Positions 57,072 through 58,058 of a DNA stretch of 64,000 nucleotides are shown in pieces. The stretch comes from Candidatus Woesearchaeota archaeon. GTDB taxonomy: Archaea; Nanobdellota; Nanobdellia; Woesearchaeales; SKGA01. The notes beneath the pieces were generated by a model. That model saw only the letters and a list, made by a program, of their open reading frames with translations. It was not told the DNA's origin and searched no databases. Both the position numbers and the translations under genes were made by a program. Location of the stretch: assembly GCA_021734105.1 (NCBI GenBank), contig JAIPJP010000001.1, forward strand, positions 36,603-100,602, read 5' to 3'. Numbering within the stretch: position 1 is the stretch's first letter; every line of letters starts with the position of its first letter.

Positions 57072-58058
57072 CTATTTCCATTGCCGTTCTACACGCTTTG
57101 CAAGTCGCATGTCTTTTGCTATTTTTGATTTCATTCCTTTCCCAACTTTTGCTAGGCCGTAGCGTACTGCTTTAGGTATGCCTGCTGTTTTTATTCCTTT
57201 CTTGGTTTGTGCTTTGCTTGCTGTATACACAATAGTTCCTATGCTTTCTAGAACAATTGTTGCTATTTCGTCTGGCGTTGCTAATTTCTCGTTTTGTAGA
57301 TATGTTGTTGGGTAAAGTGTTGTTTTTATGCTGACGCGTCTTTTGAGTTCTTGGGGGAGTTCTAAGAGTAGGTGTTGTAGTGTTTGTGGACTTTTGTCTT
57401 GTCGGATTATCTCATTAGTGATACTCACATCGTAATTGCTAAGTAGGGGGATATATTGCTTGTAAAACGCATCATAATTTTTTTCTACAATATGTTGTAC
57501 TTTATTTTTGTTTTCTGCAAATTTCATGCGATTATCTTTGTGATACGATAAACCTGCAATGGTTAAGAATAAATCTTCGTAGCTAAATGCTTCAGGTAAA
57601 ACGAGTAGCGCAGTATTCACTGCGTGTGCTAAATTTTTTTCTTGTGCTTGATTAACAAGCTCGTTTGTTTTTATGCTAAGAAATGGTTTATGCATGCGTC
57701 CTGCGACATAGAGTGAATTCCATTCTGTTAAATCTTTAATGAGTGCTTCTTCGCTGATAACACCGTACTTAATGAGCTTGTCTTCAAATTTTACAAAAGG
57801 GTTGTAATAGATGCCAGTATACTCTTCTTGTAATTGTTCTACTGCGTTTATGCCGTGTTGTTTTGCCCATAACGAGTAATCTTGTGGTCGTCGTCCCATG
57901 TTATGCAGATGCCACTGTGCTACTTCTTGCACACCAAAGATAAAATCTATCATGGGTCCTCGTTTCATGGAATAGTTTTGTTGTTCCATGGCTCCAGAAC
58001 CGTATGCTATAGCAAAGTCTGGCGTGAATTCGGTGATAATATCTAAGGGATCAATCAT
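57072..58058 (-). CDS. Tam41/Mmp37-like phosphatidate cytidylyltransferase (CDP-DAG synthase) homologue.
   Basis: '[11 protein letters not shown]...[27 protein letters not shown]...[44 protein letters not shown]' matches my recollection of the Tam41 pattern (YGSG...DFIF.V...WH..N....HYS...YFNP.V......KYGV.....L..DL..W..LY.AGR.QKP). Confidence 0.55.
   Translation of the reverse strand: [328 protein letters not shown]

Follow-up and report, generated by a model that had tools for sequence, protein, structure and literature searches.

A Tam41/Mmp37-family CDP-diacylglycerol synthase homologue encoded by a woesearchaeal genome: relatives, surroundings and possible lipid substrates

The Pfam family PF09139 (Tam41_Mmp37), whose lipid-activating enzymes are known chiefly from mitochondria, carries the description "phosphatidate cytidylyltransferase, mitochondrial". 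In the Schizosaccharomyces pombe member (SpTam41), the nucleotidyltransferase (NTase) domain comprises residues 28-189, and the protein is tethered to the membrane by a positively charged amphipathic C-terminal helix (PMC7018664). Tam41 homologues have also been reported in Firmicutes and Proteobacteria (PMC11646218). According to the passage of that source citing Kimura 2022, a Firmicutes protein (PDB entry 7ECD) makes cytidine diphosphate-diacylglycerol (CDP-DAG) and binds the membrane via its C-terminal residues; where it cites Jiao 2019 and Kimura 2022, Tam41 is described as retaining one of the three canonical NTase carboxylates, with basic residues serving cytidine triphosphate (CTP). 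Here we describe a Tam41 gene in a 64,000-nucleotide stretch of a Candidatus Woesearchaeota archaeon (contig JAIPJP010000001.1, positions 36,603 to 100,602), the whole of which is referred to as the window hereafter. A preliminary description of this stretch had proposed a Tam41/Mmp37-like CDP-DAG synthase homologue of mitochondrial type in a prokaryotic context. The gene, its domains and two further elements discussed below are located in the window as follows.

57072-58058, minus strand: complete Tam41/Mmp37-family coding sequence of 328 aa from ATG to stop, with the stop codon at 57072-57074
57651-58058, minus strand: NTase domain (residues ~1-136)
57276-57650, minus strand: winged-helix domain (residues ~137-261), from alignment to 6IG4 and 7ECD
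57075-57275, minus strand: long C-terminal helix (residues 262-328), a putative peripheral membrane anchor
57537-57539, minus strand: codon 174, Lys in place of the Gly of SYxGDxRM in the family alignment
58084-58091, minus strand: TTATAAAA, a possible archaeal TATA box, with 25 nt between the element and the ATG

The open reading frame (ORF) of 328 codons starts at the first ATG that follows a stop. Residues 7-307 of its product match positions 4-322 of the 322-position PF09139 profile (E 1.3e-87; 294.6 bits against a cut-off of 24). This match is far above the chance level and is the only Pfam match at E ≤ 10; none of the NCBIfam models matches the protein. The preliminary description, which had suggested such a profile search as a check, is thus borne out as to the family by a full-length match, and the YGSG...MIDFIF-type and YYNPFV-type strings that it quoted are both present in the translation. 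Among the PDB sequences, only Tam41 proteins were matched, namely S. pombe 6IG4/6IG2 (E 1e-44) and Firmicutes 7ECD (E 2e-36), with values of 9e-82 and 1e-62, respectively, in a profile search. An NCBI entry identical in sequence, located on a 101.7-kb contig, is named 'phosphatidate cytidylyltransferase [Candidatus Woesearchaeota archaeon]'.

The protein was also examined at the level of structure. Built from an alignment of 18 sequences, an AlphaFold2 model showed a mean pLDDT (predicted local distance difference test score) of 88.1 and a predicted TM-score of 0.86, and a beta/alpha pattern was seen in the NTase domain, the boundary of which was carried over from S. pombe Tam41 by pairwise alignment. 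When the model was compared with the PDB using Foldseek, the top match was 7ECD (E 1e-18; target-normalised TM-score 0.84; root-mean-square deviation 2.9 A; 31% identity), followed by S. pombe 6IG2/6IG4 (E ~1e-14; target-normalised TM-score 0.67-0.70), while the next best NTases gave E 2.6e-3 or worse and TM-scores of 0.15-0.25. A better fit to another NTase family, which the preliminary description had left open, is excluded by this gap, and the single Pfam match points the same way. Moreover, the protein does not carry the signature of the Pol-beta-type NTases (NTP_transf_2, ANT/AadA, CD-NTase and MntA-type), that is, a [DE]x[DE] pair plus a third carboxylate: a single carboxylate, D38 in MIDFIF, is found at its NTase motif.

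Of the 44 columns that are conserved to at least 90% in the 185-member family alignment, 43 are retained by the window protein. The importance of residues was judged here from conservation in the family, rather than from CTP-Mg contacts in coordinates. The kept columns include Y19, G20, S21, Q26, D38, W49, H50, K97, Y98, G99, W113, Y117, G120, R121, K124, P125, N142, S171, Y172, D175, R177, E182 and K186. By domain, the characteristic residues are Y19-G20-S21-G22 (the hG[GS] motif), D38, W49-H50, K97-Y98-G99 and Y117/G120/R121/K124/P125 in the NTase domain, and N142, S171-Y172-x-K174-D175-x-R177-M178, E182, K186, I190-V191 and Y202 in the winged-helix domain; the family-conserved Q284, G293, Y300, K304 and K307 are kept in the C-terminal helix.

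The C-terminal tail deserves separate mention. No transmembrane segment is present (the highest Kyte-Doolittle value of any 19-mer is 1.25). The last 49 residues of the protein bear a net charge of +14, and residues 293-328 contain its eight highest hydrophobic-moment windows and 11 of the top twelve. In the AlphaFold2 model, residues 262-327 form a single long helix (pLDDT 67-95), and the tail is ~20 residues longer than in most prokaryotic homologues. This basic amphipathic helix matches the membrane anchor of the known Tam41 proteins, and we regard it as a putative anchor whose docking role is predicted from the sequence. At the other end, a mitochondrial presequence is absent: the profile match begins at residue 7, without an N-terminal extension, while eukaryotic Tam41 matches begin 20-190 residues into their proteins. 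For lack of a presequence, the window protein is placed outside the mitochondrial Tam41 subfamily. Taken together, the profile match, the fold, the invariant residues and the peripheral-membrane architecture agree in identifying the ORF as a bona fide Tam41/Mmp37 member; the gene is complete and its product is probably active.

The prokaryotic context named in the preliminary description was likewise confirmed, and the genome is in fact archaeal, as is seen from three archaeal/eukaryotic-type markers in the window.

18966-19550: TYW3
26562-27284: diphthamide synthesis protein (Dph2)
44990-46039: NOG1-type GTPase

The window also encodes a methionyl-tRNA synthetase, a P-type ATPase and large surface proteins of the kind typical of DPANN archaea; no tRNA and no Rfam match was found in its 64 kb. 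The GC content of the Tam41 gene is 0.380, and 0.316 at third codon positions (GC3), similar to the values for the methionyl-tRNA synthetase and Dph2 genes of the window, and several immediate neighbours are lower in GC (0.27-0.32). The Tam41 gene is compositionally native and archaeal. The same gene with the same neighbours was recovered in an independent Logan assembly of SRR12088348. As for its expression, TTATAAAA upstream of the ATG, read by eye, could serve as an archaeal TATA box for a transcript that is leaderless or has a short leader; the evidence is weak, because the spacer and the DNA around it are AT-rich.

Next, the relatives of the protein were surveyed. From a library clustered at 50% identity, 2,121 representative Tam41 clusters were obtained at E ≤ 1e-3. 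No other member shares a cluster with the window protein, to which the nearest representative is 44% identical. With homologues in DPANN archaea and in bacteria of the candidate phyla radiation (CPR) it shares 36-46% identity; the corresponding values are 37-41% for the Tam41 proteins of fungi and animals and 33% for 7ECD. With a prokaryote-only profile, about 30 prokaryote-like clusters outscored those of eukaryotes, and the best 120 matches contained no name of Asgard archaea or Alphaproteobacteria, an absence that is weak evidence in a word-indexed search. No viral carrier was found in the viral contigs scanned with one peptide pattern.

The DPANN carriers are Woesearchaeota, Pacearchaeota and "Nanoarchaeota" metagenome-assembled genomes (MAGs). 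Tam41 is adjoined by MCM, the TATA-binding protein, ATP-dependent DNA ligase and L15e on one DPANN contig, and is accompanied by RIO1 and SRP54 on another and by the thermosome, Rpo7 and diphthamide synthase on others. Among the CPR bacteria, carriers were found in UBA4473, Peribacterales, Peregrinibacteria, Gracilibacteria and Pacebacteria, with neighbours including TrmD, RsmH, YidC and RNase III. The block ScpA-Tam41-HhH_GPD-PHP-SIMPL-thermosome is common to six Woese/Pacearchaeota loci, the Tam41 proteins of which fall into one clade with 99% bootstrap support. This synteny and this clade therefore indicate vertical inheritance in that sublineage; the window gene lies outside the block.

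Trees of 185, 37 and 43 taxa were constructed by neighbour joining with Kimura distances and bootstrapping. The window protein was grouped with P0127 (Woesearchaeota) and P0126, within a group containing all of the DPANN members and CPR UBA4473. The two further groups consist of the eukaryotes, and of the Firmicutes, Pacebacteria and Gracilibacteria. In this comparison with eukaryotic Tam41, which the preliminary description had suggested, the deep bipartitions have bootstrap values of only 3-46%. Owing to this low deep support, neither a direction of transfer nor a sister relation to the eukaryotes is claimed here, and we do not say which prokaryotes stand nearest to mitochondrial Tam41.

Several observations on individual members were made during this survey. 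Three metagenomic Tam41 proteins (P0016, P0137 and P0182) have Trp at several invariant-Gly columns (for example YWSG, KYWV and SYxWD), a pattern that points to genes using UGA for Gly (code 25) but translated with UGA as Trp; they are probably members of the Gracilibacteria or Absconditabacteria, which would widen the distribution in the CPR. The nearest Tam41 relatives of a locus labelled Pseudomonadales (L016, CAZZDG010000019.1) are Pacebacteria proteins (61-63% identity), and the Tam41 of a locus labelled Methanosarcinales (L011) joins the Woese/Pacearchaeota clade with 61% bootstrap support; both look like mis-binned CPR or DPANN contigs. Two contigs of the Woesearchaeota MAG ARS1419 (L006 and L007) carry identical Tam41 genes with common flanking ORFs, by assembly redundancy or recent duplication.

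To consider the function, the genes around Tam41 in the window are listed below.

53619-54779, minus strand: SoFic-type Fic/DOC protein, 386 aa, a full-length PADLOC match (E 2e-102)
55163-55906, plus strand: RadC (JAB), overlapping the next ORF by 4 nt
55903-56616, plus strand: ParE-like fusion ORF, 237 aa, of which the N-terminal ~80 residues are ParE/Gp49 toxin-like
56700-56861, minus strand: possibly coding 53-aa ORF (MSQIKKHEVVRMEGYLISAESERLLPWTSSLTRDDTGCEIFYVEKVSRIGKVY) on the same strand as Tam41, in the 455-nt gap downstream of it, without a Pfam match
58385-58756, minus strand: 123-aa hydrophobic ORF, possibly a membrane protein
59077-61495, plus strand: run of low-GC ORFans (GC 0.27-0.36), without Pfam or PADLOC matches

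SoFic, a model for bacterial-type single-gene anti-phage defence, sits 2.3 kb from Tam41 on this archaeal contig. The C-terminal ~150 residues of the 237-aa ORF have no family match, and a fused toxin module is possible there. The ORFans and the 123-aa ORF directly upstream of Tam41 resemble an accessory island adjoining a native gene.

Loci elsewhere were compared in the same respect. An all-vs-all BLAST of the ORFs around Tam41 in 18 prokaryotic loci revealed no neighbour family shared beyond close relatives. NUDIX hydrolase genes lie 1-6 kb from Tam41 in 4 of the 18 loci (50190-51068 in the window, 8603-9034 in L015, 2781-3236 in L048, and the P0014 contig), and two of them share detectable similarity. 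A CDP-lipid or nucleotide pyrophosphatase activity of these neighbours is possible; their linkage was judged too weak to be a functional clue, since the genes are common and chance may account for it.

The function that we favour, somewhat beyond an even chance, is that of a Tam41-family CTP:phosphatidate cytidylyltransferase, soluble and bound peripherally to the membrane, which would convert phosphatidic acid to CDP-DAG. Through its basic amphipathic C-terminal helix, the enzyme would dock on the cytoplasmic side of the membrane, which is anionic. CTP would be held in a pocket between the NTase domain and the winged-helix domain by the conserved G-S loop, by D38 together with Mg2+, and by Lys and Arg residues that are also conserved; the lipid phosphate would then attack the alpha-phosphate of CTP, yielding a CDP-activated lipid and pyrophosphate. 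The CDP-lipid may feed CDP-alcohol phosphatidyltransferases encoded elsewhere, and in this way a cell unable to build lipid cores might furnish scavenged lipids with new or remodelled head groups. The meaning suggested in the preliminary description, an alternative CDP-alcohol route or the salvage or remodelling of lipids, is plausible. Because none of the lipid genes sought lies in the window or beside a homologue, the salvage or remodelling role and the choice between phosphatidic and archaetidic acid are points that we infer. The catalysis, the docking of the tail and the downstream partners are likewise predicted.

Phosphatidic acid is preferred as the substrate because all assayed Tam41 enzymes make CDP-DAG, and because the same subfamily (41-46% identity, intermixed in the neighbour-joining trees) is present in CPR bacteria, whose lipids are bacterial. 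Two properties of the Woesearchaeota also underlie this preference: they are without GGGPS and DGGGPS (PMC8421398), and some hold bacterial fatty-acid and glycerol-3-phosphate (G3P) dehydrogenase genes and may live on bacteria as episymbionts (PMC8204110, PMC11868695). For a CPR bacterium, a salvage scheme leading from phospholipase D (PLD) through phosphatidic acid and CDP-DAG to phosphatidylglycerol, cardiolipin and phosphatidylinositol has been proposed (PMC6031116). Several facts weigh against the phosphatidate reading. Tam41 activity has been demonstrated for yeast, human and Firmicutes proteins only, and for no archaeal or CPR one. In Pfam scans of all 42 non-overlapping ORFs of at least 60 aa in the window, no CarS, CdsA, CDP-OH_P_transf, PLD or Cls was found, nor were these genes found beside Tam41 in the 18 prokaryotic loci, using Pfam-scanned or precomputed neighbours. 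The surroundings in the window are accessory rather than housekeeping (SoFic, RadC, ParE-like, DUF2779, a small membrane ORF and three ORFans). Finally, the sole exception among the 44 conserved columns is Lys174, which replaces the 96%-conserved Gly of SYxGDxRM.

According to the main rival reading, the enzyme would instead act on archaetidic acid (2,3-di-O-geranylgeranyl- or saturated diether sn-glycerol-1-phosphate) and form CDP-archaeol as a soluble, non-homologous replacement of CarS, perhaps accepting both stereochemistries. That the organism is an archaeon with no CarS in its 64-kb window would suit this possibility, and so would the vertical retention in the Woese/Pace sublineage, which argues for a core membrane function. 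Woesearchaeota have often been proposed, in references given by PMC8421398, to rely on archaeal partners and to recycle archaeal lipids; and since Tam41 pulls its lipid out of the membrane and makes use chiefly of the phosphate head for recognition (PMC7018664), a tolerance of the chain type is conceivable. However, every characterised Tam41 uses diacyl G3P phosphatidate, and close homologues exist in CPR bacteria, where archaeal lipids are absent; we consider archaetidic acid an unlikely, though not far-fetched, substrate. A further possibility is the recruitment of a Tam41-fold NTase, no longer a liponucleotide synthase, to another acceptor, such as a polyprenyl phosphate, a phospho-metabolite, or a protein or nucleic acid linked to the toxin/defence neighbours. 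SoFic, RadC, the ParE-like fusion and the ORFans near the gene, the Gly-to-Lys change in a conserved, active-site-proximal motif and the absence of lipid gene linkage at every locus examined are in its favour. Yet 43 of the 44 conserved positions and the membrane-binding C-terminus are kept, position 174 also varies in a handful of other members (K in P0196, N in P0130 and E in P0180), and other DPANN genomes place Tam41 among housekeeping, not defence, genes. PADLOC, moreover, is silent on the immediate flanking ORFs except for SoFic and a weak JAB match. Such a recruitment therefore appears improbable.

It might also be supposed that the gene is a eukaryotic mitochondrial Tam41 brought in by contamination, chimeric assembly or a very recent, functionless transfer, as its identity to the fungal and animal proteins nearly equals that to the prokaryotic homologues and the deep nodes of the trees are poorly supported. 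Against this, the gene lies inside 64 kb of archaeal DNA, is native in its GC and GC3, has neither an intron nor a presequence, and recurs in the same arrangement in the independent assembly; its nearest relatives are Woesearchaeota and Nanoarchaeota proteins, and synteny is kept in other DPANN genomes. An artefact is thus scarcely credible, and eukaryotic contamination or chimerism in particular is effectively refuted by the context, the composition, the independent assembly and the DPANN homologues.

The membrane lipids of DPANN archaea and CPR bacteria are believed to come from their hosts, which raises the question of how these lipids are tailored. For the phosphatidate cytidylyltransferase favoured here, Tam41 offers a concrete, clonable candidate for the first committed step of head-group synthesis or resynthesis in such ultra-small symbionts. 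Whether archaetidic or phosphatidic acid is accepted bears on the strictness of the lipid divide at the activation step, and the ~40% identity to mitochondrial Tam41 is of relevance to the origin of the mitochondrial cardiolipin pathway. The occurrence of the Tam41 family in bacteria is already known, and the window protein itself is automatically annotated in NCBI; in the literature searched, we found no discussion of an archaeal Tam41 or of its joint occurrence in DPANN and CPR. A bolder conjecture, to which we give only a small chance, would make Tam41 the only liponucleotide synthase of lipid-scavenging Woese/Pacearchaeota and several CPR bacteria: exchanged as a soluble enzyme between these two radiations of ultra-small episymbionts, it would replace the integral-membrane CarS/CdsA and activate both G3P-diacyl and glycerol-1-phosphate-diether host lipids. 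The activation of both lipid types is entertained because Tam41 plucks phosphatidate-type lipids from the bilayer. If this conjecture were true, foreign lipids would be re-head-grouped across the lipid divide, and a DPANN/CPR group, not Alphaproteobacteria, might be closest to mitochondrial Tam41.

Apart from the Tam41 locus, the window contains the following features.

113-10135, plus strand: giant ORF of 3,340 aa with fn3 and ILEI domain matches only
20213-22873, minus strand: CARDB/PKD protein, a neighbour of the 700-aa protein
22909-25011, minus strand: 700-aa protein with a C-terminal Por_Secre_tail, the C-terminal sorting domain of the Bacteroidota type IX secretion system, on an archaeal contig
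35340-37355: 671-aa protein with an NTP_transf_2/Pol-beta NTase core, weakly matching PADLOC candidate systems, near the DnaB-type helicase
38088-39977, minus strand: DnaB-type (bacterial/phage) replicative helicase of 629 aa, on an archaeal contig

The giant ORF has a strong GC skew (~0.3) and a GC3 of 0.18, and it probably encodes a DPANN surface or attachment protein.

Compared with the described systems, the window protein is structurally closest to 7ECD of Firmicutes bacterium CAG:884 (Kimura et al. 2022), which is likewise a prokaryotic protein without a presequence and is composed of NTase and winged-helix domains. The window protein differs from it in being archaeal and in having a longer and more basic C-terminal helix; at D109, a position with 99% conservation across the family, 7ECD has His. 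In the neighbour-joining trees, with weak support, 7ECD groups with Pacebacteria and Gracilibacteria, not with the DPANN-dominated group.

Among the mitochondrial enzymes (6IG2/6IG4, Saccharomyces cerevisiae Tam41 and human TAMM41), the S. pombe protein is the best PDB sequence match (~39% identity over residues 13-207). The domains, the family-invariant residues and the positively charged amphipathic C-terminal helix are the same in the mitochondrial and window proteins. Unlike mitochondrial Tam41, the window protein has no presequence and no context of a mitochondrial cardiolipin pathway, and where the 'RMSFFAEN' loop of SpTam41 (the F240 region) has an extra Phe, it reads RMKFAEN. The hosts differ as well, since that of the window protein is a DPANN archaeon probably unable to build its own lipid cores. 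The term 'mitochondrial-type' in the preliminary description is accordingly apt in that the family is shared with mitochondrial Tam41, but it overstated the oddity of the finding, as an active bacterial Tam41 (7ECD) was already known.

CdsA and CarS belong to the same reaction class as that predicted for the window protein, the transfer of cytidine monophosphate from CTP to a phosphatidate-type lipid, which yields the CDP-activated precursor for polar head groups (PMC7018664). Nevertheless, they have 5-9 transmembrane helices and an Asp-Asp dyad, whereas the window protein has an NTase fold, no transmembrane segment and no homology to them. The Tam41 proteins of CPR bacteria and of other Woese/Pacearchaeota share 34-46% identity with the window protein and resemble it in length, in architecture and in the absence of a presequence, and their hosts are likewise genome-reduced putative episymbionts; unlike its DPANN relatives in the ScpA...thermosome block, the window Tam41 resides among accessory genes.

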